The notes below the pieces were generated by a model, which did not search any database, was not told where the DNA came from, and saw nothing but the letters and a program-made list of their open reading frames with translations. From Candidatus Latescibacterota bacterium (GTDB taxonomy: Bacteria > Latescibacterota > UBA2968 > UBA8231), in the NCBI GenBank assembly GCA_965243025.1, contig CBDETY010000003.1, positions 1,888,001 through 1,952,000 on the forward strand: a stretch of DNA of 64,000 bases. Direction: 5' to 3'. Made by a program: the position numbers and the translations under genes. The stretch's first letter is position 1; the number at the start of each line of letters is the position of its first letter. Positions 24,807 through 55,622 of the stretch are shown here, piece after piece.

Positions 24807-25955
24807 ATGGGGACGGGCAGCATCCTCTGCCGGGGCTGCGAAGCCGATTTCGGGTTCGCAGCCCCCTTCCACCGCTGCCCCGGGTGCGGGGGGCCGCTCT
24901 CCTTTTCCCTGGACCGCTCCTTCCCGCTCGCCGGGATCGCCGCGCGACCGCCCGGCATGTGGCGCTACCGCGAGGCCCTTCCGGCTTTCGAGGAGGCGGT
25001 CTCACTCGGGGAGCAGCCGACCCCCCTGGTTGCGGCCGCCCCCCGGGAGTTCGGGAGGGAGGGGGTGCTGTTCAAGTGCGAGTACGCCCTTCCCACAGGG
25101 TCCTACAAGGACCGCGGCGCCGCCACCCTGGTCAGCTACCTGAAATCGACGGGCGTGACCGAAGCCGTAGAGGACTCGTCGGGGAACGCCGGGGCCTCGA
25201 TGGCGGCGTACTGCGCCCGCGCCGGTATCGGCCTGAAGGTATTCTGCCCGCAGTCCGCCTCGGCGGGAAAGCTGACGCAGATCCTGCTTTACGGGGCCGG
25301 GCTGGTGCGCGTGCCCGGGCCGCGGCCCCGGGCTACCGAGGCGCTCCTCGAGCACGTGGAGGCCGCCGGCAGCGCCTACGCCTCCCACCTCTGGCACCCC
25401 CTTTTCCTCGAGGGCATCCGCACCATGGCGTACGAGACCGCCGAACAGCTCGGCTGGTCGGCGCCCGACTACGTCCTCTGCCCGGTCGGTGCCGGAAGCA
25501 TCCTGCTTGGGCTGTTCGACGGTTTTTCCGACCTGCTCGCCGCCGGCGTCGTCAAGCGGCTGCCGCGGCTGGTCGCGGTGCAGGCGGCCAACGTCGCCGC
25601 GGTCTGCGCGGCCGTGCGCAGCGGCGCCGGGCATGTGGAGCCGGTGCTTGCCCCGCAGCCCACCCTGGCGGAGGGAATCGCCCTGCCGGCTCCGGTCCGG
25701 GACCGCGAGGTACTGCACGCGATCCGCGCCTCCGGGGGGACGGCCGTCGCCGTAGGGGAGGAGGAGATCGCAGCCGGAGCGGAGGCCCTCGGCAGGGCCG
25801 GTTTCTGCGTCGAACCGACCTCCGCGGTCGTCCGGCAAGGGCTGCGGAAGCTTATCGAAAGCGATTCCCCTCCTCCCCCCGGCGCCACCGTCGTCGCGGT
25901 GCTGTCGGGGCACGGCCTCAAGGCCTCCCCCGCCCTGGCGGAAATCCTCGGCTGA
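24807..25955 (+). CDS. Threonine synthase-like PLP enzyme
   Basis: N-term CxxC..CxxC, PTGSYKDRG, DSSGNAGAS, EPTSA, SGHGLK. Confidence 0.88.
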   Translation: MGTGSILCRGCEADFGFAAPFHRCPGCGGPLSFSLDRSFPLAGIAARPPGMWRYREALPAFEEAVSLGEQPTPLVAAAPREFGREGVLFKCEYALPTGSYKDRGAATLVSYLKSTGVTEAVEDSSGNAGASMAAYCARAGIGLKVFCPQSASAGKLTQILLYGAGLVRVPGPRPRATEALLEHVEAAGSAYASHLWHPLFLEGIRTMAYETAEQLGWSAPDYVLCPVGAGSILLGLFDGFSDLLAAGVVKRLPRLVAVQAANVAAVCAAVRSGAGHVEPVLAPQPTLAEGIALPAPVRDREVLHAIRASGGTAVAVGEEEIAAGAEALGRAGFCVEPTSAVVRQGLRKLIESDSPPPPGATVVAVLSGHGLKASPALAEILG

Positions 25956-25970
25956 ACGGCGGAAGACCCG

Positions 25971-27467
25971 TCAGCTCCGGGCTTTCAGCTCTTTCAGCCG
26001 CTGCGCCTCTTCCGAGTTCCTGTAGTAATCGTCGAGGGGGAAACAGCCGCTGACCATGCCGTTGCGCGGGGCGGTGGTGCAATCGCTGAAGGTGCGGCAG
26101 ATCCGCTTGCGGGCCAGCTCTCCCCCGCCGTAGAGCAGATCGTGCGGCAGGTCGGGGTACGACAACACCATGCGGCCCAGGCCAACGAAATCGACCGCCC
26201 CCGAACGCACCGCGGCCTGGGCGACGTGGGGCAGGAACTCCTGCAGGTAGCTGTACCCCGATCCGACGAACACCCGGTCCGGGAACGAGCTCTTCAGCCG
26301 GGCGGCCCCGGCGATCTGCCTCGCCACCCCGGCGAGCGGGTCCTCGGGCGGCTGGTACCCGTCGGACGGCGGAAACAGCGCCGGGCGCTGGATGTGGGGG
26401 TTGTAGTAGGGGCTTCCGCAGGTGAGGTTGACGAGGTCGACCCCCCACTCCCCGAGGGCGGCGATGAAGCGGCGGGGCTCGTCGAGGTCGATTTCCAGCG
26501 GATCGTCCGGGTCGATCCCGAACCCGTACTGGTAGGGCAGAAGCGCTTCGAAGGACTCGGGAACGCCGGTTCCGGGTTTGCCTCCCTCCCCGTCCGGACC
26601 GGGTCGGAACGGCACGAAGTCATAGGAACTGAGGCGCACTCCCACTTGTAGTTGCGGCGCCTCGCTCCGGATTCCCTCGACGATCTCGCGGCAGAAGCGG
26701 GTGCGGTTCTCGAAAGAGCCGCCGAACCTGCCGGGGCGGGTGCGGGCGCTCAGCAGCTCGTGGCCGAGATAGCCGTGGCAGTGCTTGACGTCGACGAAGT
26801 GAAACCCGGCGTCGCGGGCGATGCAGGCCGCCTCGACGTAGAGCTCGATCAGCTGTTGCAGGTAGTCGTCGGTGACCGGCGGGTGGCCGGGGTCGAGGCC
26901 GAACCTGCGGTCGAGAATCGGGTGCCTGTAGGCGATGCAGGGCTCCATCCGGTCCTTGCGGAAGGGCCGGCAGAAGCGGCCGGAATGGGTCAGCTGGAGG
27001 CCGGCCACGAGGTCGTCGGCCGAGCCGAAGCGTTCCCCGTGGGCGGCGGTCAGGATCTCCCTGAGCTCCCGCACTCCGTCCCGGGTCGAGGCGCAGGCCA
27101 TCAGCTGGTTGGGGTTTGCCCTCCCCTCCGGACAGACGGCGAACGCCTCGCCCCCCCAGATCAGCTTGGCCCCGCTGCGCCCGAAGTTTCGCCAGCGCCG
27201 GCGCACGTTGTCGGTGGGCATGCCGTCAGCGGACCCGTCCCACCCCTCCATCGGCTGGATGGCGAAGCGGTTGCCCGCCCGCCTGTCGCCGATGGCGCAC
27301 GGCTGTGCCAAGGGCGATTCGGGCGCCTGCAGCGGAGTTTCGTCGCAGGGGAGCGAGGCCCCGATGGCTTCGAGGTGAGCGCGGAAGTCGGCGGCCTGCT
27401 TGAAGGCGGACACCCGCGGATGGCGGTCCCGGCGGCGCGGGGGCCTTCCCGAACCGGCCTCAGCCAC
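25971..27467 (-). CDS. NADH:flavin oxidoreductase (old yellow enzyme family)
   Basis: [50 protein letters not shown]; start overlaps lgt stop. Confidence 0.9.
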
Positions 27468-28242
27468 CGGGCCTTCCGGAATCCCCGGACATCCGACCGG
27501 ACCTGGGCAGGTAGATGACCCCGGCGATTCCCACGGCCACCAGGGCCAGGCTGATCAGCTGGGCCCCGGTCAGGCCCCATGCCACGACCGGGTTCAGGCG
27601 GATGAACTCCACTGCGAAGCGGGCGCAGCCGCTGAGAACCAGGTAGAGGGAAAACGAAGTCCCGGGAACCGCAAGGCGCCTCCGGGTCGACCAGAGGATG
27701 CCGAAGATCGCCAGTCCCATCAGGGTTTCGTACACCGGGGCGGGGTGGACTTTTTCGAGGGTAGGGACGACTCCCTTCGGGTACGCCATGCCCCAGGGGA
27801 GGTCGGTCGGCACGCCGTAGTCCCCGTCGCCCGCCAGCTGGCAGCCGATTCTGCCTATGGCGTAGCCGATCGCCAGGCCGATGCCGACGGCGTCGGCCAC
27901 CTCGGGCAGGGGCGCGCCGCGGCGGCGCACCAGCCAGACGACCGCGGCCGTCGCCAGGAACAACCCGCCGTGCCAGGTCAGGCCGCTTCCGGAGAACACG
28001 GCGCCGAGGGATTCGCTCCAGGTGACTCCCGGGGGAAGCTCGAAGAGGATGAAGTAGAGCTTGGCCCCGGCGAGGCCGGCGAGGATCCCCGCAGTGAGGA
28101 TGGAGGAGGCCAGCTCGGGGTCCAATCCCTTGCGGCGCAGTTCCTTCTGGATGAAGAAATGGCCGGCGAGGAACCCGAGCACGACCATGGGGCCGAAGGT
28201 GGGCAGCCTGAAGCCGCCGATTTCCAGCCAGTAGGGGTACAT
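27460..28242 (-). CDS. lgt: Prolipoprotein diacylglyceryl transferase family protein
   Basis: [41 protein letters not shown]. Confidence 0.9.
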
Positions 28243-31200
28243 CAGTTCGTTGCCTCGGCGGACCCGGCTTCCCCGCCGTCCCCGGCGAGGCGGGCGATTT
28301 CGCGCCGCACCTGCCCCGTGACCTCCCTGTAGACCTCGTAGTTTCCCAGGCGCTCGCGCCGCGCGGCGTACGGCGCCATCTCGACCGGAGGGCCGAAGTT
28401 CAGGCTCACCCGGTTGCGCCGGGGAAAGCGGCCGTTTTTCGGCAGCGCCTCCCGGGTCCCGGCGACGTGCACGGGAACGATCGGCAGGTCGAGCTCGATC
28501 GCCAGCAGACCCACCCCTGTCCTGAACGGTTGCAGAGCCCCGCTCGAGGACCTGGTTCCCTCGGGAAATACCAGCAGCGGCCGCCGCACCCCGATGAGGC
28601 GGCGCAGTGCCAGCAGGCTTTCGAGAAACTCCTCCTGCCGGTCGAAGGGCACGGCGTCGAGCATGGTTCGCAGGAACCAGCTAAGCGAAGGGGACCTCGA
28701 GAGGTAGTCCCTGGCCGCGGCGAGACTGATCCGGTCGATTCGGGGCCTTATCGCCAGCAGGATGGACGGGGCGTCGAGATGGCTCGTGTGGTTGGCGGCG
28801 ATCACGTAGGGGCGGTCCGGGGGAAGGTGCTCCAGTCCCCTTGCCTTCAGCGAGAAATAGAGACGGTACAAACCCCCGCCGGCGGTCCAGAACGTTTTCC
28901 GCAGTATGCCGGAACCCCCATCGGCCCGCAGCTGATGCCCCCTGTTCCCGTCCTGTCCCCGCAGGGCACGTGTCCAGTACCCGCCCCCGTCCCCGGGAGA
29001 GGGGATCCTCTTTTCAGAGGCGACGAACAGGGGCTCCAGTTTGTCCACGAGACTGCGCAGCGTCGGGCTGCGAAGGATCTCCCGGGAAAGCGGACGGCCG
29101 AGAGTTTCCCCGACGATCCCGGCGAACTCCACCGACATCAGCGAGTCGAGCAGGCTGTCGAGGGGGGCGTCGCCGTGGGCGAGAACTTCGGCCGGCGTCA
29201 GTCCCGTTATCCTGCTCAACAGGTCGTAGACCGACCTCTCCCAGGGGGCCAGGCTCTCGTCGATCTCGACCTCGGCCCCCTGCAGCTCGTGCTGCAGGTC
29301 GGCCAGCACCCGGGGCCGGTCGACCTCGCCGGCGCAGTTGCGCGGAAGGGGCCCGCTGCGCACGTGCAGGCGCTGAATGCGCTGGTAGGTCGGAAGGTTG
29401 CGCGAAATCCCGTACGCCGCCTCCCTCGCGCGGGCGGCCGCCGCATCCCCGGCTCCCTCGGCCAGCACGGCCACGCCGTGAGCCTCCTCGCTCAGAGTTC
29501 GCGGCGATCTCACCCCGACGACGCTCAGCTCCGCCACCTCCGGCAGACCCCGGTACAGCCCTTCCACTTCATCGGGGTAGACGTTTTTGCCGGCGCCGGT
29601 GACGATCAGGTCCTTGCAGCGGCCGGTGATGAACAGGTACCCCTCGTCGTCGACCCAGCCGATGTCCCCGCTGTGGAGCCAGCCGTTTCTCAGGACCGCG
29701 GCGGTCAGTCCGGGGCTGTCGAGGTACCCCGGCATGACGTTGGGTCCACGCACGAGGATCTCGCCGCAGCCGCGGGGGTCAGGCTCGTCAATGCGCAGAT
29801 CGACGCCGGGCAGAGGGATTCCGACCGACCCCGGCCTGGCCTTTCCCGGAGGGTTGACGGTGACGATCGGGGAAGTCTCCGTGAGGCCGTACCCCTCGTA
29901 CACGGTAACCCCCATGCGGCGGTAGCTCTCGAAGATCCCCGGTGCCAGGGGGGCGCCGCCGCTGACGACGAGCTTGAGCCTGGAGATCGGGGCGGCGCTG
30001 TCGCGGTCGAGGGCGTGGCGCTCCTCCTCCCCGTGCCTGCCGAGGCGCTCGATGCGGTCTGCGAGGATCTTCAGCAGCCGGGGCACCGCCAACAGCGCAT
30101 TCGTGCCGGTCTCCCGCATGGTCTCGAGGATCACCCGGCTGTTCAGGGTCTCGAGGTAGGTGACGGTCGCCCCGCTCAGGAGCGACATCAGCAGCGAGCC
30201 GGTGAACTCCAGGCCGTGGTGCAGGGGAAGCAGCGAGAGGACGCGGTCCCCCCGGTCGAGGCGCTGAACCTCGGCGATGGCGAGCAGGTTCGAGAGGAAA
30301 TTCCCATGCGTGAGGACAACTCCCCTGGGCTCGACCGCGGTGCCGGCGGTGAAGATGATCGACGCCTCCATCCCGGGACTGACGCCAGGCGGTTGGAGGT
30401 GCTCACGAGGAGGGGGCTCGGCTGCGGCTTCGCCTCCCGGCAGCGGGAACATCCGGCCGTCGAGATCGAAGAAGGCAAGCGGCCGCCCGGAGGTCCCGGC
30501 GGCAGCTCTTTCGGAGCCGAGAGTCTCGAAGCTGGCGCGCGAGGCGACCAGTCCACGGGCCCTGGTGAACGCCGCCAGCTTCCACACCTCCCCCGGGGGG
30601 GTCTGGGGGTCGACGGGAACCACCGCCAGTCCGGCGACCGAGGCCCCCATGTAGGCGATCACCCACTCGGGGCTGTTTCCCCCGTACAGCAGCACCCGGT
30701 CCCCGGCCTCGAGCCCGCAGCGCTGCCACAGGTCCGCCCGGGCTTCGGCGCGCGCCAACAGCTCTCCGTAGGACACTCTCACCCAGGAATCGCCCCGCTT
30801 CATCTGCAGCGCCGTGATCTCCCCGTAGCGGGCGCAGGACCAGCGCAGCAGATCGGGGATCGTCTGCAGCTCCTCCTCCTGCTGCCAGCGCTCCTCTTCC
30901 GAGCCTACCTCCGCGGGGGGCTCGCGGAAGATCTCCTCCTCCCCGGCGTCCCCCAGGACGTGCCGCCTGAGCCCGGGCAGATGGACGTCGCCGATGTAGC
31001 GATCCCAGTCGATGCGCTCGACGTCCATGTTGAAAACCTGCCGTTCGCCTGCCGGGAGACTGGCGTGGAGGGCGCGGGCGCGGTCGGTGGAAAAGCTGCA
31101 CTCCAGGTGGGTGTACGGATGGTAGATGTCGGCGTAGTACAGCACCCTCTGCAGCCGGATCTTCATCGTCGACAGGAGCCGGCGTTTCTGCGGAGATGCC

Positions 31201-32546
31201 CAGTTCCATCCGGATGGCAGGCGCTTCAGGAGCCAGGAGTGGAGCGTCAGCGGCAGCGAGTACTTGAGCCGGAACTTCAGCCGGAAGGAGCGGATGCCCG
31301 GGTAGGTCCACTTCGCCAGGTCCGGGGCGCGGCCGTCGCGCCCGAGGAGCGGGTTGGCGCCGAAGTAGGCCACCAGGCTTTCGTAGAGCTGGGAAATCCG
31401 CACCGGGTTGCGGCTCGCCGTTGCCGCGTGGTAGACCTGCACCTCTCCGGGGGAGGCCCGGGTCGCGGCGGCCAGGGTTGTGTTGACGACGACGTCGACC
31501 GGGACGATGTCGAGGGCGAGATCCGGCCGCGCCGGGAAATCGGGCAGCATTCCCTTCCCGTACGCCGCCACCAGGGGATCCATCACCTTGAGACCGGTGA
31601 TCCACCCCGGCTCGGGATCCTCGAGAGAGCTCTCGATGATGCTCGGCCGCACGATGACGAGCGCCTGGCCGTCGCGGTTCCCGACCAGCAGCTGCTCCCC
31701 CATCGCCTTGGTGAAGGTGTAGACGTCGTTCCAGCCGTTCTTCCTGGCCCGCCGCATCCCCTCGTCGACGAGGCGGCGCTCGATCCAGTTCCTGGTGCGG
31801 TCCTCGGTGAGCTTCCCGAGCCGGCTCTTCGACAGCGGCCTGCTGCGGTGCTGCCGCAGGATGGCGCGCTCGAACTCGCGCCGGCGCGCCTCTCCCCGGC
31901 CCTCCTCGTACACCCCCCTGCAGAACGCCTCGCAGTCGGCGATTTCGCGCTCGGGATCGAACCGCGCCGACGCCGCACCCGGATTCGCCAGCTGGCGGAT
32001 GTTCCGGTCAGGGGGCAGGAGCTGCTCAGGTATTTCCCCGGTGAGGCGCCCGTTGACGTACGCCGTGGAGACGTGGACGAAGTCGACCCGCTTGCGGCAG
32101 CCCGAGGCGAACTTCATGAGGGCGACCGGGCCGTGGGTGTTGAGGCGGATCGAGTCGTCGAGGGGCTCGTCGAAGACCACGGTCGCGGCGCTGTTGATGA
32201 CGGTGTCGATCTCATCGCGCAGGCGGTCGAGCATCGCCGGTTCGACCCCGAAGTCCGGCTTGTCCGTGTCCCAGGGGACGGCGACCACCCTGGCGGCGCG
32301 GCGCGCGAAGCCGTCAGGATCGCGGTCGCGGTGGCGGCGGAAGACCGAGTCCTCCGCCAGCATCCGCTCCACCCGCTCTTCGGCGGATAGAACCTGGCGG
32401 TTGGGGCCGCGTCCCGGCCGGGCGAAGGCGTAGATCCGCTCCACCCCCGGCAGGTCGCGAAGGATCTTCGCGATCAGGGCCTGGCCGAGGAAACCGGTGC
32501 CCCCTGTGATCAGCAGACTGCGGCCGGTGAAATATTCGCGGATCAT
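28242..32546 (-). CDS. ElbD-like multidomain enzyme: fatty acyl reductase + AMP-binding + ACP + PlsC-type acyltransferase
   Basis: ITGGTGFLG, HVSTAYV, YTFTK, IVRPSII (FAR); GYGLTET, HSGDIG, GRCKDLI (adenylation); LDSLM (ACP); NHTSHLD, FPEGTRS (acyltransferase). Confidence 0.9.
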   Translation of the reverse strand: MIREYFTGRSLLITGGTGFLGQALIAKILRDLPGVERIYAFARPGRGPNRQVLSAEERVERMLAEDSVFRRHRDRDPDGFARRAARVVAVPWDTDKPDFGVEPAMLDRLRDEIDTVINSAATVVFDEPLDDSIRLNTHGPVALMKFASGCRKRVDFVHVSTAYVNGRLTGEIPEQLLPPDRNIRQLANPGAASARFDPEREIADCEAFCRGVYEEGRGEARRREFERAILRQHRSRPLSKSRLGKLTEDRTRNWIERRLVDEGMRRARKNGWNDVYTFTKAMGEQLLVGNRDGQALVIVRPSIIESSLEDPEPGWITGLKVMDPLVAAYGKGMLPDFPARPDLALDIVPVDVVVNTTLAAATRASPGEVQVYHAATASRNPVRISQLYESLVAYFGANPLLGRDGRAPDLAKWTYPGIRSFRLKFRLKYSLPLTLHSWLLKRLPSGWNWASPQKRRLLSTMKIRLQRVLYYADIYHPYTHLECSFSTDRARALHASLPAGERQVFNMDVERIDWDRYIGDVHLPGLRRHVLGDAGEEEIFREPPAEVGSEEERWQQEEELQTIPDLLRWSCARYGEITALQMKRGDSWVRVSYGELLARAEARADLWQRCGLEAGDRVLLYGGNSPEWVIAYMGASVAGLAVVPVDPQTPPGEVWKLAAFTRARGLVASRASFETLGSERAAAGTSGRPLAFFDLDGRMFPLPGGEAAAEPPPREHLQPPGVSPGMEASIIFTAGTAVEPRGVVLTHGNFLSNLLAIAEVQRLDRGDRVLSLLPLHHGLEFTGSLLMSLLSGATVTYLETLNSRVILETMRETGTNALLAVPRLLKILADRIERLGRHGEEERHALDRDSAAPISRLKLVVSGGAPLAPGIFESYRRMGVTVYEGYGLTETSPIVTVNPPGKARPGSVGIPLPGVDLRIDEPDPRGCGEILVRGPNVMPGYLDSPGLTAAVLRNGWLHSGDIGWVDDEGYLFITGRCKDLIVTGAGKNVYPDEVEGLYRGLPEVAELSVVGVRSPRTLSEEAHGVAVLAEGAGDAAAARAREAAYGISRNLPTYQRIQRLHVRSGPLPRNCAGEVDRPRVLADLQHELQGAEVEIDESLAPWERSVYDLLSRITGLTPAEVLAHGDAPLDSLLDSLMSVEFAGIVGETLGRPLSREILRSPTLRSLVDKLEPLFVASEKRIPSPGDGGGYWTRALRGQDGNRGHQLRADGGSGILRKTFWTAGGGLYRLYFSLKARGLEHLPPDRPYVIAANHTSHLDAPSILLAIRPRIDRISLAAARDYLSRSPSLSWFLRTMLDAVPFDRQEEFLESLLALRRLIGVRRPLLVFPEGTRSSSGALQPFRTGVGLLAIELDLPIVPVHVAGTREALPKNGRFPRRNRVSLNFGPPVEMAPYAARRERLGNYEVYREVTGQVRREIARLAGDGGEAGSAEATN

Positions 32547-32677
32547 CTCGTGACCTGTTACGCTATCTCGCGGCGTTGCCAGTGTTCGCCGAACAGACGC
32601 GGAGGCCTTGCGAGGCGGGCGCCTCGGCCGGGAAATCCTGGTGATTCATTTACGGGGGGAGACAATTGCGGGAACGA

Positions 32678-32917
32678 TTACTGGTTGGTGGAGTCGGGAA
32701 AGTCGGCGGGAAAACGGCCTGATGCCGCCGGGTCCTGTTCGCTTTCTTCCGGTCCGGCCTGTTCCCCTTCCGGGCCTTGCGGCGGCTCGAGCCCCTGTCC
32801 GGTAATGTACGGGTGCCTGAGCTGCTTCCTCAGCGCCTCCAGGCGCGGCTCGTCGAGCCGTGCCGGGCCCCCGCCGCCGTTGCCGGTCCTGTCTTCGCGA
32901 CGTTTCGCCACTTGCAT
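32678..32917 (-). CDS. Possible small hypothetical protein upstream of the ElbD-like gene
   Basis: MQVAKRRED...RLEALRKQLRHPYITG...; 79 codons in the intergenic gap, no recognised family. Confidence 0.3.
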   Translation of the reverse strand: MQVAKRREDRTGNGGGGPARLDEPRLEALRKQLRHPYITGQGLEPPQGPEGEQAGPEESEQDPAASGRFPADFPDSTNQ

Positions 32918-33013
32918 TCCTTGTCCGGGAAAACTCATTGAAGATACGCCGCCCCGTGGTGTCAGCAATTTGAGCGGAGGCAGCACCGCCGCCGGGGTAG
33001 AGCAGCAGAGGGG

Positions 33014-33937
33014 ATGAAAAAGGATCCGACAGGAGGGGAACGCTGGACCGTCATCGCCAATCCGGCAGCGGCCCGTGGCCGCGCCACCCGCCTGGCGGCG
33101 GCGGCTTCGCAATTCCTCGAGGAGCGGGGAATCCAGACCGAGCTGCTGGTTTCGGAGAGCCGGGGCCACGCCTGCGAGCTCGCCGGCAAAGCGATCGCCG
33201 AAGGGGCCTGCCGCATCGTCGTGTGCGGAGGCGACGGAACCCTCAACGAGATCCTGCCCGCGGTCGCCGGCTCGGGGGCCGCGGTCGGGCTGCTGCCCTG
33301 CGGTACCGCCAACGACTTCGCGCGCGCCCTGGGGATACCGAGGCGGCCTCGCCAGGCGCTGCGCAACCTGGTCGAGGGGCGCGAGGTCCGCGTCGACCTC
33401 GGGGCCTGCGGCGACCGCTACTTCTGCACCGTCGCCGCCTGCGGATTCGACGCCGAAGTCAGCGAGATGATGCGCGAGGGACGACGCTTGCCGGGAACCG
33501 CGGGTTATCTCTGGGCGGGGCTCCGCCACCTGTTCCGCTTCGAGCCCGCCAAGGTTTCGGCGACCGGGGATTTCGGCCGCCTGGAGGCCGAGGTGCTGCT
33601 CGTCGCCGCCGCGGTTACGCGGAGCTACGGCGGCGGCATGCGAATCGCGCCGCACGCCGATCCGGCGGACGGGAAGTTCGACGTCGTCATCGTCGGGTCG
33701 GTCGCCAGGAGAACGGTGGCGGCGATGCTCCCCCGCCTTTTCCGGGGGGGGCACACCCGGCATCCCGCGGTGCGCATCGAGCGCTCCTCCTTCCTCGAGA
33801 TCGAGACCGGGGGCGGGTCCCGGCCGCTCTACGCCGACGGCGAACCCCTGGGGAGTACGCCGGTTACCCTGCGCACCGCCGCCGGCTCGCTTCGCGCCAT
33901 CGTTCCGGAGGGCCCAACCGAGAGGAGGTGTCCGTGA
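33014..33937 (+). CDS. Diacylglycerol/lipid kinase family (YegS/DagK/BmrU)
   Basis: IANPAA, GGDGTLNE, LPCGTANDFA, YGGGM, DGKFDV, YADGE. Confidence 0.92.
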   Translation: MKKDPTGGERWTVIANPAAARGRATRLAAAASQFLEERGIQTELLVSESRGHACELAGKAIAEGACRIVVCGGDGTLNEILPAVAGSGAAVGLLPCGTANDFARALGIPRRPRQALRNLVEGREVRVDLGACGDRYFCTVAACGFDAEVSEMMREGRRLPGTAGYLWAGLRHLFRFEPAKVSATGDFGRLEAEVLLVAAAVTRSYGGGMRIAPHADPADGKFDVVIVGSVARRTVAAMLPRLFRGGHTRHPAVRIERSSFLEIETGGGSRPLYADGEPLGSTPVTLRTAAGSLRAIVPEGPTERRCP

Positions 33938-34085
33938 CCGCACCGACGCCGCCGAAAAGGAGCGGGACCGGCATGCATGCACCGGCGACCATTCTTGCCC
34001 GCAGCCGCCATTGTCGCCAAATTAGAAGTCCCCCCACTGCAGCGCCGGGCACCGAGCCCACCCCCCTTGAAAGCTGTTGCGCCCA

Positions 34086-35057
34086 ATGGCATCCCGGGCA
34101 CAGAAAATCCGCCTAGCCGTCTTCGTGCTTGCCGCCGGGGGCGTGCTCCTGCTGTTCCTGTTCTACGTAGCGGGAAAAAGCCTCCTCACGCCGCGCCAGA
34201 CCTATTTCGTCGAGTTCCCCGACTCGATCGGGGGGCTGCGCGGCGGGGACAAGGTCAAGTACCTCGGAATCGATGCCGGGCGGGTCGAGAACACCTCGAT
34301 CTCCCCTGACGACCACTCGGTCATCGTCGTCGAGATCTCCATCGAGGGAGACAGGGTCCCCAACGTCATCCGCGAAGACACGCGGGCGCGTCTGCACAGC
34401 GCCGGCCTCACCGGGTTGAAGCACGTCGAGCTCGTGGCCGGATCCCCGGATTCGCCGGTCCTGCCCCCGGGCTCGCGCATCCCCTCGAGCCCGACCTTCC
34501 TGTCTGAAATGGGAGACCGCGCCCAGGAGCTGACCGACAAGATGGAGCTTCTGCTCGAGAACCTGACGGAGATGACCGACCGGGAAAACAGCGCTCAGCT
34601 CAACAGCATGCTCGCCTCGGGCAGCGAGTTCACCGCCAGCGCCAACGATCTGATGAACGACAACCGCCGGCAGATCGATGAAAGCTTTCGCAACCTCGCG
34701 GCAATGACCAGTTCCCTCGCCGGGGCGGCGGCCTCCCTGCACGCGACCATGGATTCGGTGAACGCCCTGCTCACCGACGGCGAGCTGCGCGGCACCCTCT
34801 CCGACCTGCGCAGCACCAGCCGCCACCTGCAGCTTCAGATGGAGGGCCCGGTTCCGCAGCTGCTCGCCAACCTCTCGCGCATGGCCGGCAACATCGACAC
34901 CACCTTCATGCGCCTCGACCGCACCGTGATGCAGGGCCGCCGGAACTTCCTCGACTCGATGCAGGACCTCCAGGAAACGATGCTCAACGTCCGCCAGATG
35001 ACCGAGCTGATCAAGGAGAACCCCTCCATTCTCATCCGCGGCCGCGCCGACCGCTAG
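34086..35057 (+). CDS. MCE/MlaD family protein with helical C-terminal extension
   Basis: N-term TM, SIGGLRGGDKVKYLGIDAGRV, GLTG, C-term ENPSILIRG. Confidence 0.92.
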   Translation: MASRAQKIRLAVFVLAAGGVLLLFLFYVAGKSLLTPRQTYFVEFPDSIGGLRGGDKVKYLGIDAGRVENTSISPDDHSVIVVEISIEGDRVPNVIREDTRARLHSAGLTGLKHVELVAGSPDSPVLPPGSRIPSSPTFLSEMGDRAQELTDKMELLLENLTEMTDRENSAQLNSMLASGSEFTASANDLMNDNRRQIDESFRNLAAMTSSLAGAAASLHATMDSVNALLTDGELRGTLSDLRSTSRHLQLQMEGPVPQLLANLSRMAGNIDTTFMRLDRTVMQGRRNFLDSMQDLQETMLNVRQMTELIKENPSILIRGRADR

Positions 35058-35061
35058 CTCC

Positions 35062-35859
35062 GTGCCGATGCCTTCATCCATCCCTGTCAGCGCGCGGTTC
35101 CTGCGAGGAGCAGCGATCCCCTTCCTCGCCGCCTGCGCTTCCTGCACGAGCCTGATCGGGGGCAAGGCGGAGATCCGCGAGAACCGCAAGTTCATCATCG
35201 AGTCCGGGCAGCTGGAGCTTAACCTGCCGAACTCGGAGCGCCCCTACGCCCTGCACGTGGAGGTCGGCAAGTTCGACGTCTCCAGGCTGTACGACCGCAA
35301 CCGGATCATCCTCAGAAAGTCCGCCGAGGAGGTCCGCGACATGGACTACCACTCCTGGGCGGTGCGGCCGAGCGAGATGATCACCGACGCGGTCGAGGGC
35401 TACCTGAAAGAAGCCCGCCTGTTCACCGACATCCGCCAGGACTTCGTCGACGTCATCCCCGAATACAGGATCACCGGCACCGTCAAGTCGCTGGAACGGC
35501 TCGACAGCGGCGACCAGTGGTACGCCAACTTCAGGCTGTCGGTGCAGCTTGTCGACGGCAGGAACGAGGTCGTCAAGAGGTGGGACTTCGACGACGAGGC
35601 GGAGCGCGTGTACCACCGGGATTTCGTGCACACCGTGTCGGCCTTCAACGAGCTGCTCAGGCGCTTCATGTACCGGGTGGTCCGCGACATGGACCACATG
35701 TTCCTCATCCGCAAGCTGCAGCGCGAGAACCGGCCGTACCAGCACATTCTCGACGTTCCGAACGGCCGCGCTGCGGCGCCCGCCGACACCGCGGTCAGCG
35801 ACACCACCCGGGAGGCCCCGAATCCCGACTACGACATCATCCCCGGAAAGGGGCTGTAG
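35062..35859 (+). CDS. ABC-type transport auxiliary lipoprotein (PqiC-like)
   Basis: Lipobox LAAC/ASC, YDRNRII...WAVRPSEMI; position right after the MCE gene. Confidence 0.78.
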   Translation: MPMPSSIPVSARFLRGAAIPFLAACASCTSLIGGKAEIRENRKFIIESGQLELNLPNSERPYALHVEVGKFDVSRLYDRNRIILRKSAEEVRDMDYHSWAVRPSEMITDAVEGYLKEARLFTDIRQDFVDVIPEYRITGTVKSLERLDSGDQWYANFRLSVQLVDGRNEVVKRWDFDDEAERVYHRDFVHTVSAFNELLRRFMYRVVRDMDHMFLIRKLQRENRPYQHILDVPNGRAAAPADTAVSDTTREAPNPDYDIIPGKGL

Positions 35860-35860
35860 C

Positions 35861-37402
35861 ATGCGCCGGTGGCGTTCCGCCCCCTCGGGCGTCGGCCTCC
35901 TCTTCCTCGCGGTCCTGGCGGTCGGCGTCGCGACCGCCGACGAGAGCACCTGGTCGGCGCCTCCCGCACGCGTGCAGCTGGCCGAGGATCCGCAGCTGAT
36001 CCCCAAGGGGAAGGGGATGCTGTTCGTGCCGATGATGAGCGTCCCCCACGGCAACGAGCCCAGCTACCAGATCTACAGGAAAGGGGGTGAACACATCGGG
36101 TCCGCCAGTCCCGGAAGCGGCGTGCTCCTGCCCCCCGGAAGCTACCGGGTGCGCATCGGTTCCGGGGCGATCTCGCAGATGATCAGGAAGACGGTGGAAA
36201 TATTGGAGGGGAGCAGCACCCTGCTCAAACCGGACTGGTCCGCCCTGGTTATCGACGTCATCGACCAGACCCGCACCCCGGTCAGCGAATCGTACGAACT
36301 CTACCAGGAGCAGACCCAGGAGAACTTCGGCCAGGGACTCGGAATCGAGGAAGAGCGCGGGGAAAAGGTACGCACCTGGATCCTCAAGCCCGGCGTCTAC
36401 CACGTGGTCAAGGTCGGCGAGTCGTTCTCGACCATCCGCAAGTTCAGCGTCCGTCTCGAACCGGGGAAGCTGGTGCAGCGCGACCTCGTTTATGACGACG
36501 ACGCCGGCAACTACATCGGCTTCTACGCGCGCCCGGTGCTGCCGTACGGGACCGCCCGCATCGCCAGGAACGTCACCTCGCAGACCGAGCTCAGCGGTTC
36601 GACCCTGTTCCACACCTCCCAGAACACCGCAGGCGAGGACATGGCGAGCACCTCGCTGTCGCTGCAGGTCTTCAACCGGACCCGCTACAGCACCGACCGG
36701 CACTTCGCAAACCTGCGCCTGATCTTCGAGGAGGGGGCCACCCAGGAGGGGGACAATGGCTTCCACAAGTCCATCGACAAGCTCGAGCTGCGGGGCACCT
36801 ACATCTACCGCGTGTCGACCGCCTTCGGGCCCTACCTGCGGGGGGTGCTAAACACCAAGCTGTTCTCCGACGACGTGTCGTTCGATCGTCCCCTCGAGGG
36901 GGACTTCATCAAGTACGGCGCAGCGGGCGACACCCTGAGCATAATCCCCAACCCGGCCGAGGTGACCCTGTCCCCCGCGTTCTTCCCCCTTCGTCTTCGC
37001 CAGGGTATCGGGATCAACTCCCAGCTCGTGCGCTCGTTCGCCCTCAACGCCGACGTCCGCCTCGGCTTCGGAGCGCGGCAGACCTACGTCTCCGACTCGT
37101 TCGAGCTCGCCTCGACCGAGCGCTCCGCGACCGAACTCCAGAACGCCTTCAGCACCGGTTTCGAGGCGGTGTTCATCACCGACGCGCGCCTGGCCAAATC
37201 GATCAACTTCGACTCGGAATTCGACATCCTCATCCCGGGCAGGAACAGGGACGACTGGGTGTTCAGCTGGCAGAACCGCCTGCGCATCTTTCTCACAAGC
37301 TTCATCAACCTCGACCTGGTGGCCGATCTCGAGCGCGAGGAGACACTGAAGCGGCTGCAGGGACGGGAGCAGATCCTGCTGCGGTTCTCCCGTTTCATCT
37401 GA
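35861..37402 (+). CDS. Hypothetical secreted protein, probable outer-membrane beta-barrel with N-terminal beta-sandwich domains
   Basis: Signal peptide from ATG 35861; LPPGSYRV/LKPGVYHV repeats; alternating amphipathic strands; ends LRFSRFI. Confidence 0.7.
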   Translation: MRRWRSAPSGVGLLFLAVLAVGVATADESTWSAPPARVQLAEDPQLIPKGKGMLFVPMMSVPHGNEPSYQIYRKGGEHIGSASPGSGVLLPPGSYRVRIGSGAISQMIRKTVEILEGSSTLLKPDWSALVIDVIDQTRTPVSESYELYQEQTQENFGQGLGIEEERGEKVRTWILKPGVYHVVKVGESFSTIRKFSVRLEPGKLVQRDLVYDDDAGNYIGFYARPVLPYGTARIARNVTSQTELSGSTLFHTSQNTAGEDMASTSLSLQVFNRTRYSTDRHFANLRLIFEEGATQEGDNGFHKSIDKLELRGTYIYRVSTAFGPYLRGVLNTKLFSDDVSFDRPLEGDFIKYGAAGDTLSIIPNPAEVTLSPAFFPLRLRQGIGINSQLVRSFALNADVRLGFGARQTYVSDSFELASTERSATELQNAFSTGFEAVFITDARLAKSINFDSEFDILIPGRNRDDWVFSWQNRLRIFLTSFINLDLVADLEREETLKRLQGREQILLRFSRFI

Positions 37403-37412
37403 CCTCTCGACC

Positions 37413-38507
37413 ATGAGCGAGGTCGCAAACGTCGACGAGGGGATCCGCCTCACCGGCCCCCTGACCCTGGAGACCCTGCCCGGCCTCGAAGGCCGCTGCC
37501 GGCGGCTGATCGACGGCCATCCGCGCACCCGCCTGTCGGCCGACGTCGCCGCCGTGAGCGAGATCGACACCGCCGGCGTCGTCTTCCTGCGCGGCCTCCC
37601 GGGCGCCGCCGGGGCCGCCGGCAAGGAGCTGGTGGTCGGTCCCCTGCCCGACGATCTGCAACCGTTCTTCGACTTCGTGCGGCCTCCGCAGGCCGCCGCC
37701 AGCGAAGCGCCAGCCCGTCCTGAACTCCGCCAGCGCTGCGGAGACGCCGCCGAGGAGTTCGTCGACCGCGCCGCGGATTTCCTCTATCTCGGCTCCGACC
37801 TCACCTGGTCGGCGGCCGCGGCGATCTTCCGGAGGTTCGGCATCCGCCGCGGCGCCTTCGTCGACCAGGCGGTCGCGGTCGGCTCCCGGGGCCTGCCCAT
37901 CGTCGCCCTCATCCTGTTCCTCATCGGAGGCGTATCGACGCTTCAGGCCGCCGCACAGCTGCGGCAGTTCGGGGCCAACATCTTCGTCGCCGACCTGCTC
38001 GCCATCGGCATCAGCCGCGAGCTCGGGCCGCTGATGACGGCGATCATCGTCGCCGGGCGCAGCGGCTCGGCGATCGCCGCCGAGATCGCCACCATGAAGT
38101 TCACCGAGGAGATCGACGCCCTGCGCACCATGGCTCTCGACCCGCTGCGCATGGTCGCCGTTCCCAAGATGTGGGCGATGCTGGCCACGGTTCCCCTGCT
38201 GACGGTGATGGCGGTCTTCTTCGGCCTTCTCGGGGGCACCCTCACCGGGGTCCTCTCCCTCGACATCGCCGCGGCTACCTTCGTCGCCCGCATCGCCGAC
38301 GCCCTGCAGCTCAAGGACATCCTCACCGGCCTGGTCAAGAGCGTCTCCTTCGCCTGGATCATCACCGTGATCGGCGTCCACCGCGGCCTCACCTCCAGCG
38401 GGGGAACTACCGGGGTCGGCGTCTCCACGACCTCGTCGGTGGTCAGCTCGATCTTCGGCATCATCGTCCTCGACCTCGCCTGGGGTCTGATCTTCTACAT
38501 GGGGTGA
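37413..38507 (+). CDS. MlaE-family ABC permease with N-terminal STAS domain
   Basis: IDTAG (STAS); RELGPLMTAIIVAGRSGSAIAAEIATMK..EEIDAL; GVGVSTTSSVV. Confidence 0.94.
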   Translation: MSEVANVDEGIRLTGPLTLETLPGLEGRCRRLIDGHPRTRLSADVAAVSEIDTAGVVFLRGLPGAAGAAGKELVVGPLPDDLQPFFDFVRPPQAAASEAPARPELRQRCGDAAEEFVDRAADFLYLGSDLTWSAAAAIFRRFGIRRGAFVDQAVAVGSRGLPIVALILFLIGGVSTLQAAAQLRQFGANIFVADLLAIGISRELGPLMTAIIVAGRSGSAIAAEIATMKFTEEIDALRTMALDPLRMVAVPKMWAMLATVPLLTVMAVFFGLLGGTLTGVLSLDIAAATFVARIADALQLKDILTGLVKSVSFAWIITVIGVHRGLTSSGGTTGVGVSTTSSVVSSIFGIIVLDLAWGLIFYMG

Positions 38508-38512
38508 CGGCG

Positions 38513-39262
38513 ATGGCGGCGGATTCTGCGGCGGTCCCGGCGATCGACATAACGCGGCTGCGCGTGGCCTACGGCGACTTCCTCGTGCTGCGCGACATCA
38601 GCCTGCGCGTCGAGCAGGGAGACGTCGCCGTCATCGTCGGCGGCAGCGGCTGCGGCAAGAGCACCCTGCTCAAGGCAGCCATCGGCCTGGTGGAACCGAG
38701 CTCGGGGGAGGTGCGCCTGCTGGGATCGGAGCTGCGCTCCCTGGAGGAATCCCGGCAGGATGCGCTCAAGAAGCGGATCGGGGTGATGTTCCAGTACGGG
38801 GCCCTGCTCAACTCGCTGACGATCGGCGAGAACGTCGCCCTGCCCCTGGAGATGCACACCGACCTCGACCCGGGCCTGGTGCGCGAGGTGGTTTCGACGC
38901 GGCTGCATCTGGTCGGCATCGGGCAGGCGGTCGACCGCTACCCGAACGAGCTTTCCGGCGGCATGCGCAAGCGCGCCGCCCTGGCCCGCGCCATGGCCCT
39001 GGAACCGGACATCCTGTTCTGCGACGAGCCGGGGGCCGGGCTCGATCCGGTGACCGCGGCCGAGGTCGACCGCCTGCTGCTGACCGTCAACCGCAGCCTC
39101 GGCGTAACCCTCGTCGTCGTCACCCACGAGCTGCTCAGCATCGACAGACTCGGGGGCCGCCTGCTGATGCTCGCCGGTGGGGAGGTGCTGTTCTCGGGCC
39201 CCTCGGAGGAAGCGCGCCGCTCCGGGAAGCCGGAGCTCGCGGAGTTCTTCCGCCCGCAGTGA
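38513..39262 (+). CDS. MlaF-family ABC ATPase
   Basis: GGSGCGKST, FQYGALLNS, ELSGGMRKRAALARA, DEPGAGLDP, VTHE. Confidence 0.94.
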   Translation: MAADSAAVPAIDITRLRVAYGDFLVLRDISLRVEQGDVAVIVGGSGCGKSTLLKAAIGLVEPSSGEVRLLGSELRSLEESRQDALKKRIGVMFQYGALLNSLTIGENVALPLEMHTDLDPGLVREVVSTRLHLVGIGQAVDRYPNELSGGMRKRAALARAMALEPDILFCDEPGAGLDPVTAAEVDRLLLTVNRSLGVTLVVVTHELLSIDRLGGRLLMLAGGEVLFSGPSEEARRSGKPELAEFFRPQ

Positions 39263-39305
39263 CGCCCCCCGCCCCAGGTGAATCCCCCTTCCCGCCGGGA
39301 CCGAC

Positions 39306-40001
39306 TTGAAACCGATTCCCCCCTTCCTCGCCCGCCTCCCCGACCGCTTCCGCAGGAACGGGTTGGTGCGCGGTTTCCGCGCCTCGTACCTGGCGCGGAT
39401 CTGCCGCCCCGCCACCGTCTTCGACGTCGGCGTCGGACGCGGCACCGACGAGCTGTACCGCGCCTTCCCCGAAGCGAGGGTGCTGTTGATCGAGCCGCTG
39501 GCCGAGTACCGCCAGGCCCTCGAGCGGATCTCCGGGAAGTACGACTGCCGGATCATCGACAAGGCGGTCGGCAGCCGCTGCGGACAGGCGGAAATCGCCG
39601 TCGACACGGGCGATCCGCACAAGTCCTCTTTCGGGCGCCGCACCGGCCCGGGGTCGCCGGGGGGTTCGCTGGCGGCCCGCACCGTCGAGATGACGACGCT
39701 GGACCGGATCCTGCGGGAACACCCGGACCTCGAGCCCCCCTTCCTCCTCAAGATCGACACCGAGGGACACGAGCTCGAAGTGGTCGAAGGGGCTCAGGAG
39801 CTGCTGCGACGGACCGAGGTCGTCATCGCCGAGGTCTCGGTCGCCGAACGCTTCGAGGAGGGGTACCGGTTCGAGGAGTTCGTCGCCGCCATGGGGGCCC
39901 GCGGCTTCCGGGTGTTCGACTTCCTCAGGGTCCGCTACGAAAAGAAGGCGCCGGGGACGAGGTTTGCCGACATCGTTTTCAAAAAGGCGGATGCGGGATG
40001 A
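39306..40001 (+). CDS. FkbM family methyltransferase
   Basis: VFDVGVGRG, IEP, TTLD, LLKIDTEGHELEV. Confidence 0.88.
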   Translation: MKPIPPFLARLPDRFRRNGLVRGFRASYLARICRPATVFDVGVGRGTDELYRAFPEARVLLIEPLAEYRQALERISGKYDCRIIDKAVGSRCGQAEIAVDTGDPHKSSFGRRTGPGSPGGSLAARTVEMTTLDRILREHPDLEPPFLLKIDTEGHELEVVEGAQELLRRTEVVIAEVSVAERFEEGYRFEEFVAAMGARGFRVFDFLRVRYEKKAPGTRFADIVFKKADAG

Positions 40002-40519
40002 AGATCGTCCTTATGGCGGCGGTCTCTCCGGACCGCGTCATCGGCAGGGGAGGCGCCATACCCTGGCATTACCCGGCCGATATGCGCTACGTCAGACAGA
40101 CGACCACCGGCCACCCCTGCGTGATGGGGCGGAAGACCTGGGAATCCCTCCCCCGCCGGCCGCTTCCCGGGCGGCCGAACCTCGTCCTCACCGGACAGGC
40201 CGACTACGAGGTCGCTGCCGGAGTGATCGTCTGCGCCAGCTTCGAAGAAGCGCGGCGGCGCTGCGAGGGGATGGGGGCCGGGCGCATGTTCGTTCTGGGA
40301 GGAGAGGGCGTCTTCCGCGAGGCGATGTCGGCGGCGGACGAGATGCTGATCACCCATGTTCCCGACCGCGTCGCTGGGGACGTGCATTTTCCGTTATGGG
40401 ACGAGCGGGAATGGCTCCTGGAAGAGAGCCGGGAAGAGGAAGGGCTGCGCTTCGCGAGGTACGTCCGCCGGCGCGGCGGCAATCGAACCGAAAGGAAAGA
40501 GACGGAGAGCGATGTTTGA
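39998..40519 (+). CDS. folA: Dihydrofolate reductase
   Basis: VIGRGGAIPWHYPADM, VMGRKTWESL, PLPGRPN, VLGG, GDVHFP; ATG at 39998. Confidence 0.94.
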   Translation: MKIVLMAAVSPDRVIGRGGAIPWHYPADMRYVRQTTTGHPCVMGRKTWESLPRRPLPGRPNLVLTGQADYEVAAGVIVCASFEEARRRCEGMGAGRMFVLGGEGVFREAMSAADEMLITHVPDRVAGDVHFPLWDEREWLLEESREEEGLRFARYVRRRGGNRTERKETESDV

Positions 40520-46858: not shown

Positions 46859-46868
46859 AGGGGACCCC

Positions 46869-48995: not shown

Positions 48996-49250
48996 ACTCA
49001 ATCCTTCAGGCTGTTGTGTTATTCGTAAAATGAGCCTTACCAGTAAACGTTGAGCAATCGAAACCATATCTTTCAACCCGCTCACCATTCCCGCGACAAG
49101 GCCACTCCGTGTCGGAATGGGTGGCTGCCCCCGGGCGGAGGTGAGCCTGGCCGGCGGGAGTTTGCCGTGAGATCGAACCATCTTCCGGGCGCTTTCCCGC
49201 AAAAGACGGCCGGCGCCCTCCGCAATCCGCCCCATTGTTGAAAATCATTC

Positions 49251-53668: not shown

Positions 53669-53847
53669 AGCAGGGTGACTGAGGATTCCTCGGGTGCAGC
53701 CTGAGCTCCAGGCGTAACAGGGGAGGCAGCCGGCAGGGATGTCGCCTTGCCGACCATTCGGCATGATTCGCCGCTTCCCTCCACCAGATGAGCATCGATT
53801 CAGTTCCGCCGGCGATGCGGAAGACGGCAGGCACCGGCAGCGGGATG

Positions 53848-54864: not shown

Positions 54865-55622
54865 CCTTACTGACCTTCGGGCCGTGGAATACCGAACTGG
54901 AGACCTGCGGCCCTTACCAAAAACGATGTGATTCACGCTCCCATGGCTGTCCTTTCGGTTTCAGTGGGATGTGACTCTGCCGGCGTGGCACCGACAGAAG
55001 GGACTGGGGAAGCGGCAGCGGATGCTGCCTTTCCCCGCGATCTATATGCCCTACAGTGTACCTGGATGGACTTAAAAAGCAAATCGCATTCGAGAGATTC
55101 CGATAAAATCTCGTAATGGCGGCGGGAAACTTTGGTTTTATTGGAGCGGGCAGAGGGCGGCAAGGACTGGGGGAGCCGAGATGTCCGCGGGAGGTGCAGG
55201 AATGCCCGATTTCAAGGGAGTTGGAGCCGGGGTGCAGCGATCCTCCGACGCAATCGGCGAAACGGAGTCGCGCTGCGATTCCAAGGCAGAAAAGACCCGG
55301 TCTCTGGATAATCGAGAGGACGCAGAGGGAGGGCTTTCGGAGGCCCCGGCTACCTCGGGGTTCCGGGCGATTCGGGAACGGTCGAGGTGCCGGCTACGCG
55401 GAACTGCGAGGGGAAGGAAGCCCGAACCTGGCGAACCGGCAGGCCATGAGTGCCCTGGCATGGTTTTTGCAGGACTTCGCTTTGAAAGGGGAGTATTCTC
55501 CGAAGGAGAGTACTAACGGGAGGCAACGGCCAACGGGGGTACTTGTCCCTCCACCGATGAGGAAACGCCGAACGTCCTTGCGGGTTGCTCTGTTTTCTCG
55601 TCTGTTGTCCTTCCGGATGCCC

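Follow-up and report, generated by a model that had tools for sequence, protein, structure and literature searches.

A conserved ElbD-lgt-old yellow enzyme gene row beside the MCE operon in a family of Latescibacterota, and its probable relation to an AGPS-type alkyl-ether lipid pathway

The window considered here is a stretch of 64,000 nucleotides from the genome of a Candidatus Latescibacterota bacterium (NCBI GenBank assembly GCA_965243025.1, contig CBDETY010000003.1, positions 1,888,001 to 1,952,000), where it forms a high-GC part, about 0.68-0.70 at the locus of interest, of a 6.8-Mb contig in a three-contig genome. Three genes on the minus strand, an elbD-like gene, then lgt, then a gene of the old yellow enzyme (OYE) family, lie divergently to a lipid kinase gene and an MCE operon (Table 1). 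An original prediction, made from the letters of the DNA and their open reading frames (ORFs), took these genes for a variant pathway to ether, fatty-alcohol or wax lipids, possibly with ether-anchored lipoproteins, that included phosphorylation and MCE-mediated trafficking. Comparison across the phylum gives a different picture. In one large family, a fatty acyl reductase (FAR) or the longer ElbD consistently shares an operon with the housekeeping lgt, next to the only MCE transporter.

Table 1. Genes, domains and the intergenic region of the locus, in window positions
Feature	Position	Strand	Basis
elbD-like gene, 1434 aa, first of operon	28242..32546	-	Pfam domain order and intact motifs in translation
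FAR module of ElbD: NAD_binding_4 (13-356) and Sterile (465-532)	30951..32510, residues 13-532	-	Pfam
Adenylation domain of ElbD	29721..30845, residues 568-942	-	Pfam AMP-binding 240.9 bits
Carrier-protein domain of ElbD	29043..29231, residues 1106-1168	-	Pfam PP-binding 21.5 bits, cut-off 20.8; DSL serine motif in translation
Glycerolipid acyltransferase domain of ElbD	28467..28847, residues 1234-1360	-	Pfam Acyltransferase 81.7 bits; NHTSHLD and FPEGTR motifs
lgt, prolipoprotein diacylglyceryl transferase, N146C/Y26F ('CQLAGDGD') subtype, 260 aa	27460..28242	-	Pfam LGT 157.6 bits, cut-off 24.9
OYE-family flavoprotein gene, 498-aa ORF (homologues about 486-491 aa), third of operon	25971..27467	-	Pfam Oxidored_FMN 82.3 bits
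Divergent intergenic region elbD/kinase, 467 nt, presumed promoters	32547..33013		Coordinates; function inferred
YegS/BmrU-family lipid (diacylglycerol-type) kinase	33014..33937	+	Pfam DAGK_cat and YegS_C; TIGR00147 151.1 bits, cut-off 118.65
MCE/MlaD-domain protein	34077..35057	+	Pfam MlaD 52.1 bits
ABC-transport auxiliary lipoprotein, LAAC lipobox	35062..35859	+	Pfam ABC_trans_aux 28.1 bits; N-terminal sequence
513-aa secreted protein	35861..37402	+	No Pfam or NCBIfam match; predicted beta-sandwich and barrel
STAS-MlaE fusion permease	37413..38507	+	Pfam MlaE 236.3 bits and STAS_2; TIGR00056 222.5 bits, cut-off 212.2
MlaF-like ABC ATPase, start 38504 or 38513	38504..39262	+	Pfam ABC_tran; best NCBIfam match MlaF PRK11831, below cut-off

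The first gene of the operon encodes one polypeptide in which Pfam places FAR, adenylation, carrier, and acyltransferase domains in the order of ElbD, as the original prediction had read it. The catalytic motifs are intact in the translation (TGGTGFLG, YTFTK, TAGTAVEPRG, GYGLTE, GKNVYP, DSL, NHTSHLD, and FPEGTR). GxxGxxG and YxxxK are taken here to mark the FAR, the AMP-binding core motifs the adenylation domain, DSL the carrier serine, and HX4D with FPEGTR the acyltransferase. With the query used, the FAR module is the sole FAR-like match in the genome, and FAR is the part of ElbD that is conserved across the class. A full-length homologue with 34% identity over ElbD residues 3-1393 is present in a metagenome-assembled genome (MAG) labelled delta proteobacterium.

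The nearest described counterpart is ElbD of Myxococcus xanthus which, in the portions available of the papers on it (Lorenzen et al. 2014, through PMC9131029, PMC13012113, PMC9426513), is likewise a single chain of FAR, acyl-CoA-synthetase-like, ACP, and AGPAT/GNPAT-like parts in the same order. M. xanthus also carries an AGPS gene elsewhere in its genome, as does the organism of the window. The genetic settings differ. In contrast to the elbA-E operon of M. xanthus, no elbB (HAD), elbC, or elbA/E (NAD-epimerase) lies beside the window gene; lgt and the OYE gene come after it instead. The earlier remark that accessory elb genes are not recognizable here holds for the window ORFs scanned, which include neither a HAD (ElbB-like) gene nor an NAD-epimerase (ElbA/E-like) one. 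A CarF/PEDS1-type desaturase (PF10520), a further point of difference from M. xanthus, gave no match in the genome, a result that does not establish absence because the control genomes gave none either.

The conservation of the gene order was followed in a phylum sample of 168 genomes. The family of the window's genome, denoted f1, has 76 of these including that genome, and 73 of them have a FAR/ElbD match; f2, f3, f4, and f14 are other families of the same sample. FAR/ElbD, lgt, and OYE are contiguous in 68 of the 73 f1 genomes, three of which are pieced across a contig break, and such recurrence is more than chance. Of the five exceptions, two are contig ends and one is a fragment; a fourth genome has FAR and OYE adjacent and its lgt at another place, and the fifth, of genus g10, has only ElbD. 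The order spans 16 of the 18 f1 genera at only about 50% ElbD identity. A FAR/ElbD match was found in 39 of 40 relatives, and the same order is seen among public relatives in 17 of 80 loci from the lgt alignment, named Candidatus Latescibacterota (7), Gemmatimonadetes/Gemmatimonadaceae (6), and otherwise (4). None of the genomes compared from outside f1 has the three genes side by side, and in one single-contig f2 genome they stand at 0.03, 0.36, and 4.09 Mb. The conservation of the neighbourhood, which the original prediction put up for testing, is real and confined to f1; the linkage arose once, in one family.

The extent of the conserved unit is given by the forms that ElbD takes and by the surroundings of the operon. 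Full-length ElbD is found in 49 of the 73 f1 genomes, FAR only in 17, and other or truncated forms in seven; in the 17, the part of the M. xanthus protein from adenylation domain to acyltransferase is absent. Because of these 24 genomes, the conserved core is FAR-lgt-OYE rather than ElbD as such. In a comparison of 22 f1 loci and 13 from other families, in which the window proteins were placed by tblastn, 20 of the 22 f1 loci have lgt immediately after FAR/ElbD, and 20 have OYE next. The divergent MCE operon is present in 17 of the 22, with one clear absence and four loci cut by contig ends, and the kinase in 10. Intermediate forms of ElbD occur at the f1 loci L021, L022, and L020; one has an adenylation region of 33-37% identity in a shorter protein (about 1220-1240 aa), and another stops after the adenylation domain (residues 1-1087).

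The genes of the operon are packed closely. The TGA of elbD and the ATG of lgt share one base (TGATG at 28244-28240), confirming what had been noticed at this junction. This overlap of codons is specific to the window's genome; relatives have short gaps instead, with medians of 20 nt here and 18.5 nt at the lgt/OYE junction when measured from match coordinates. With GTG at 27467 as its start, the OYE ORF would run 8 nt into the end of lgt. The next in-frame start would cut off residues conserved in homologues, so the overlap originally described is plausible. Parts of the window stretch were found in 20 sequencing runs, several of them labelled sponge or marine metagenome. One of the 20 is on record as RNA and contains 0.18 of the sampled words; its contigs, from a strain that is 93-97% similar, cover 27361-27798 and 27929-28667 and span the lgt/OYE and elbD/lgt junctions. 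Contigs that bridge both junctions are a weak hint of co-transcription, as no strand or level is readable from them and the library may contain DNA. The three genes are presumably transcribed together. A promoter and terminator scan of 25700-39500 gave no signal of use, with 0 promoter-like sites (no sigma-70-like consensus) and 4 terminator-like sites against 6.2 expected.

The genes on the plus strand are the lipid kinase and MCE operon they had been taken for. The kinase has both the DAGK catalytic and the YegS_C domain and reaches its subfamily cut-off, and in three families, whose layouts differ, a YegS-type kinase is found close to FAR. The MCE operon unites an MlaD-domain protein, an MlaE permease, and an ABC ATPase, with the MlaF and OM_asym_MlaD equivalogs below their cut-offs. 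It shares with Mla/Pqi-type systems the MlaD, MlaE, and MlaF-like ATPase components, a STAS (MlaB-like) domain, and a PqiC/ABC_trans_aux-type lipoprotein. It differs from them in its order (MlaD, lipoprotein, barrel, STAS-MlaE, MlaF), in the fusion of STAS to MlaE, and in encoding within the operon its own 513-aa beta-barrel protein that belongs to no family. The model of this protein (pLDDT 73, pTM 0.47) has an N-terminal beta-sandwich region and a long-stranded C-terminal barrel that resembles the outer-membrane barrels NalP, FapF, and OmpG (Foldseek E 4e-7 to 5e-6), and the protein is conserved in f1 loci at 48-91% identity. Together, the modelled barrel, the STAS-MlaE fusion, and the lipoprotein suggest a self-contained trans-envelope MCE system. 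Since the MlaD match in 34077-35057 is the only one in the genome, the operon is best read as the general MCE system of the cell rather than one dedicated to the elbD locus, which gives no support to its proposed place in a variant pathway.

The linked Lgt matches Pfam PF01790 over its full length (profile positions 1-240 of 240) and scores below the NCBIfam equivalog cut-off (TIGR00544, 90.8 bits against 118.9). Set against E. coli Lgt (PDB 5azb/5azc; PMC4728403, as far as its available text goes), it keeps the equivalents of the catalytic R143 and R239, and of E243 and R246, as R131, R208, E212, and R215, which are invariant in 18 orthologues. Four residues that E. coli Lgt requires are not retained as such: the positions of Y26 and N146 are taken by F16 and C134, that of H103 by H or Y, and that of Y235 by S/G or other residues, and the region aligned to the head domain is shorter. 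The same text reports that Y26 of the E. coli enzyme hydrogen-bonds the sn-2 ester oxygen and that the mutants Y26F, H103Y, and Y235S are inactive (PMC4728403). Natural variants with H103Y/W/F and N146C/E151D are described in the accessible part of another study (PMC13251419), for example a minor homologue of M. smegmatis. That homologue, MSMEG_5408, is a minor second copy of the N146C type, whereas the window subtype, which bears an invariant 14-letter motif, is the sole Lgt of most f1 genomes.

Copy numbers bear directly on the role of this gene. The lgt adjacent to FAR/ElbD is the only Lgt-family match in 17 of 24 f1 relatives, one- and two-contig genomes included, or in 18 if G018 is counted, where a contig break divides the match. 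All five near-complete relatives of this kind that were checked carry LspA (PF01252), which makes the linked Lgt the candidate for the step upstream of LspA. The window's genome does hold the second canonical lgt that had been thought worth seeking, at contig 3625157-3625888 (L043:9613-10425), and this classical copy scores higher than the linked one (227 bits). It adjoins cobW and the zinc-uptake genes ZnuA and ABC-3. Roughly 13 of the 76 f1 genomes have such an additional classical lgt. The linked gene is accordingly the sole housekeeping copy in most relatives, a finding that the original prediction would have counted against itself, and not in the window's genome, where the extra copy is the canonical one.

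The subtype also occurs widely without its f1 partners. At least 483 stretches in a species-level genome collection encode a relative, and in 63 of the best 80 loci, from many phyla, an N146C-type lgt has neither FAR nor OYE beside it; 44 of the 63 are flanked by 1.5 kb or more on either side. Of five further genomes tested, three have the subtype as their only or clearly best Lgt match. When 541 flanking ORFs around N146C-type lgt outside f1 were clustered, no partner turned up in more than 12 of the 63 loci. Within the phylum, families alternate between classical and N146C-type lgt, mostly with one copy each, and the classical-lgt families f4 (g22), f2 (g30, g31), and f3 keep OYE and FAR, with AGPS kept in f2 and f4. 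Two candidate explanations were rejected on this evidence: that the linked lgt is a dedicated second copy, in view of its sole occurrence in most relatives, the alternation of types, and the presence of LspA; and that N146C-type lgt is coupled phyletically to OYE or FAR/AGPS, in view of the classical-lgt families that keep OYE and FAR and, in f2 and f4, AGPS. The linked lgt is concluded to be the working, housekeeping Lgt of the lineage and no pathway-specific paralogue, its activity being presumed.

The third gene of the operon encodes a complete OYE-type barrel by its AlphaFold model (pLDDT 83), although the Oxidored_FMN match (cut-off 27 bits) covers residues 53-284 only, profile positions 2-230 of 342. 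Family and TIM-barrel fold both agree with OYE, and the model matches ene-reductases of the TsER/YqjM class, with a Foldseek E of 1.7e-22 to TsER and TM by target of 0.76-0.81. The TIM barrel and the HGY of the active-site motif are common to this class and the window protein. Aligned to 3krz, the latter has Lys at the first His position and keeps the second His and the Tyr (KHCHGY). It further differs in being about 140 residues longer, with insertions, and in its conserved Cys-rich C-terminal motif, where Cys457, Cys463, and Cys475 are invariant, possibly as a metal or Fe-S site.

The distribution of this OYE-like gene is broader than the operon. A single copy is present in 131 of the 168 phylum genomes, with 58-72% identity throughout the class; its subfamily of about 490 aa shows 56-72% identity across phyla, an unusual degree of constraint, and the protein has more than 8000 database matches. 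The genes next to it in f2-f4 are a 2-hydroxyacid dehydrogenase, MreBC, AP_endonuc_2 (xylose-isomerase-like barrels), and an aminotransferase. Among 80 OYE metagenome loci, only four or five, f1-like, have lgt or FAR; the other 75 (L145-L219), 54 of them with at least 800 nt upstream, have no FAR, lgt, AGPS, GNPAT-like, kinase, or MCE genes beside OYE. The recurrent neighbours in those 75 are DHDPS-like (27), MFS (22), SDR (12), and GH88-like (12). Assignment of the OYE as a lipid enzyme by context was tried and found unsupported, as its neighbours elsewhere are non-lipid genes; the context points away from a lipid substrate. A variant pathway using Lgt and OYE, as the original prediction can be read, is therefore not supported: the linked lgt is the standard copy of the family, its subtype is mostly unlinked, and OYE is not tied to lipid genes.

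The capacity for ether lipids, the other part of that claim, fares better once the rest of the genome is considered. A 613-aa ORF at contig 3178444-3180282 is homologous to mammalian AGPS (4bby; 492 bits, E 2.4e-146, residues 43-607), which supplies the orthologue that an AGPS-type pathway calls for. AGPS is present in 70 of 75 f1, 29 of 31 f2, and 22 of 22 f4 genomes, and FAR and AGPS are 2-4 kb apart in nine f2, f4, and f14 genomes compared. At the annotated sister-family loci (L036:9013-16266, L039:4506-10734, and L031:2431-12617, f3 included), FAR, a 645-aa protein, AGPS, and an SDR stand in a row in f2 and f4, with a YegS-type kinase a few kb beyond the row in f2. The f3 row consists of an A-domain, FAR, a 664-aa protein, HAD, ADH, LarN, and DAGK. 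A homologue of the 645-aa protein with 655 aa and 44% identity is encoded in the window's genome at contig 4771897-4773801 (L139:1462-3429).

The 645-655-aa protein has no Pfam match and no PDB sequence match. Its C-terminal third contains a conserved H-x-S-x-x-D motif and further acyltransferase-like blocks, and its Atlas (language-model) features are acyltransferase-like, with a score of 0.92 and about 100 of the 256 in common; these features serve as a lead and no more. The 645-664-aa protein may be a divergent GNPAT-type dihydroxyacetone phosphate (DHAP) acyltransferase, and the FAR, GNPAT-like, AGPS, SDR row of the sister families looks like a complete eukaryote-type alkyl-ether pathway. 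In the available portions of the literature, a FAR/GNPAT/AGPS pathway is described for animals and Myxococcus (PMC13012113, PMC9131029). The window's genome has FAR, the GNPAT-like protein, and AGPS in common with the aerobic eukaryote-type pathway, which further includes an acyl/alkyl-DHAP reductase, and with M. xanthus MXAN_1676-1674. In contrast to these, the f1 genes are scattered, at 1.92, 3.18, and 4.77 Mb on one contig in the window's genome; the f1 FAR is often fused to the adenylation, carrier, and acyltransferase domains; and the GNPAT-like protein is without a Pfam match. The AGPS homologue and GNPAT-like protein support ether-lipid capacity in this genome. ElbD is the likely source of the fatty alcohol for AGPS because it contains the sole FAR-like match.

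The reading preferred here, in which moderate confidence is placed, is that ElbD feeds an AGPS-type alkyl-ether pathway and that its operon partners are housekeeping envelope genes joined to it by lineage-specific synteny. Deduced from sequence on the basis of the gene content, conservation, and copy numbers counted above, the chemistry would run as follows. The adenylation domain of ElbD would activate a fatty acid and load it onto the carrier domain, and the FAR module would then reduce the carrier-bound acyl group to a fatty alcohol. The acyltransferase domain would acylate a glycerol-3-phosphate or DHAP backbone. The ether bond would be formed by the AGPS homologue, aided by the GNPAT-like acyltransferase, both encoded elsewhere, and the end product would be 1-O-alkyl (plasmanyl) glycerolipids. 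The YegS-type kinase probably rephosphorylates (alkyl)acylglycerols. Lgt would act as the normal prolipoprotein diacylglyceryl transferase of the lineage, the OYE-like gene would provide a class-wide ene-reductase-type flavoprotein with an unrelated substrate, and the MCE operon would provide the single inner-to-outer-membrane lipid transporter of the cell. On this view two operons of envelope-lipid genes, divergently oriented, have stayed together in one family, no new pathway is needed, and ether-lipid metabolism at the locus would be limited to ElbD and, probably, the kinase.

Several observations weigh against this interpretation. The stability of the order over 16 of 18 genera despite the divergence of ElbD could mean selection for a shared function and not inertia. 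Genus g10 (L016, which is G024, and G011) keeps full-length ElbD and the MCE operon without the N146C-type lgt and OYE, having a classical lgt elsewhere, and this may be co-loss of a functional pair or a single two-gene deletion. The Lgt subtype has F, H/Y, C, and S/G where the E. coli mutants Y26F, H103Y, and Y235S are inactive, so that its normal activity is a presumption. The kinase is absent from 12 of the 22 f1 loci, and at least one genus (L011) lacks an adjacent MCE operon. Ether lipids in these uncultured organisms are deduced from genes alone, and Pontiella, which has elbD homologues, is an organism in which, according to the available text of the study, ether lipids were not detected (PMC11868695).

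A direct functional coupling of the operon genes is considered unlikely. It would have the phosphatidylglycerol pool used by Lgt be partly 1-O-alkyl-2-acyl, lipoproteins carry alkyl-acyl-glyceryl anchors, and MCE move ether lipids to the outer membrane. The constancy of the order in f1 with short gaps, the shared base of the elbD stop and lgt start in the window's genome, the RNA-library contigs that bridge the junctions, and the lipobox lipoprotein encoded in the MCE operon are all consistent with it, as is the change in the Lgt subtype at Y26, the residue that contacts the sn-2 ester oxygen in E. coli. This is outweighed by the many phyla in which the Lgt subtype lacks FAR and OYE beside it, by the sister families in which FAR and AGPS are used with a classical lgt, and by the single origin of the linkage in one family. 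Moreover, any Lgt might transfer ether phosphatidylglycerol, so that no linkage would be needed. The fuller version of this idea is likewise judged unlikely: a sole Lgt co-expressed with a sole FAR could yield ether-anchored lipoproteins, with delivery of ether lipids to the outer membrane by the single MCE system and its own outer-membrane barrel, a co-regulated 'ether envelope' module in sponge-associated bacteria.

Also unlikely is a reading in which the products of ElbD/FAR are free fatty alcohols or neutral lipids of wax type, for storage or the surface, with kinase and MCE as unrelated neighbours. Stand-alone bacterial FARs make fatty alcohols for wax esters, and such a role would suit both the conservation of FAR by itself as the part of ElbD in the core and the 17 f1 genomes that have FAR only. 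The clustering of FAR with AGPS in sister families and the presence of AGPS in the window's genome speak for an ether product instead. The genome also gave no WS/DGAT (PF03007) match, a weak point because control genomes gave none either and absence is not shown.

Very improbable indeed is a new ether route, in which an Lgt-like enzyme would move the diacylglyceryl group of phosphatidylglycerol to a fatty alcohol to give alkyl-diacylglycerol, with OYE as an analogue of the AGPS flavoenzyme or a reductase: a genuine AGPS is present, the linked lgt is the only Lgt in most relatives with LspA in those checked, the OYE family shows no linkage to lipid genes in other settings, and alcohols are much weaker nucleophiles than thiolates. 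These outweigh the retention of the FAR-lgt-OYE core even without the adenylation-to-acyltransferase part of ElbD, the alteration of the Lgt subtype at acceptor and donor sites, and the ether-forming step of the Myxococcus ElbD route, which is unknown according to the available text of PMC9131029.

Part of this picture was already known. Hits of M. xanthus ElbD in Latescibacterota MAGs appear in the available portions of two papers, one of them PMC11868695 and the other a 2026 preprint, and the former counts ElbD homologues in 50 and Agps homologues in 67 of 92 Latescibacterota MAGs (PMC11868695). In the available text of the preprint, the Latescibacterota elbD hits are termed 'standalone' and diacylglycerol kinases adjoin elbD in other phyla. 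The words lgt, diacylglyceryl, and old yellow do not occur in that text, and its figures or supplements may already list the neighbours of Latescibacterota elbD; no report of an elbD-lgt-OYE operon was found in the literature searched. New are the fixation of FAR/ElbD, in one large family, in an operon with a housekeeping lgt next to the single MCE transporter and the compact FAR, GNPAT-like, AGPS, SDR cluster of the sister families. Concrete gene sets are now available for asking which sponge-associated bacteria make monoalkyl glycerol ethers. The locus also guards against over-reading adjacency, as ordinary single-copy genes make up two of the three in the operon and their linkage has arisen once.

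The rest of the window is housekeeping in character, with genes for ribosomal proteins, ispDF, queA, dnaJ-grpE-hrcA, ilvD, a pyridoxal-phosphate enzyme, folA, and aminotransferases. A 413-aa ORF at 39278-40519 has its DHFR domain at residues 243-387 and overlaps a better-supported FkbM-type methyltransferase ORF at 39306-40001; folA probably starts much later than 39278. Positions 46000-49300 and 53800-64000 have a lower GC (0.58-0.63) than the rest of the window. The lower-GC stretches, which are possibly acquired DNA, include an IS1595-type transposase (53848-54936), an NYN-domain gene (55755-56651), and a 1556-aa ORF with NOV_C (58809-63479).

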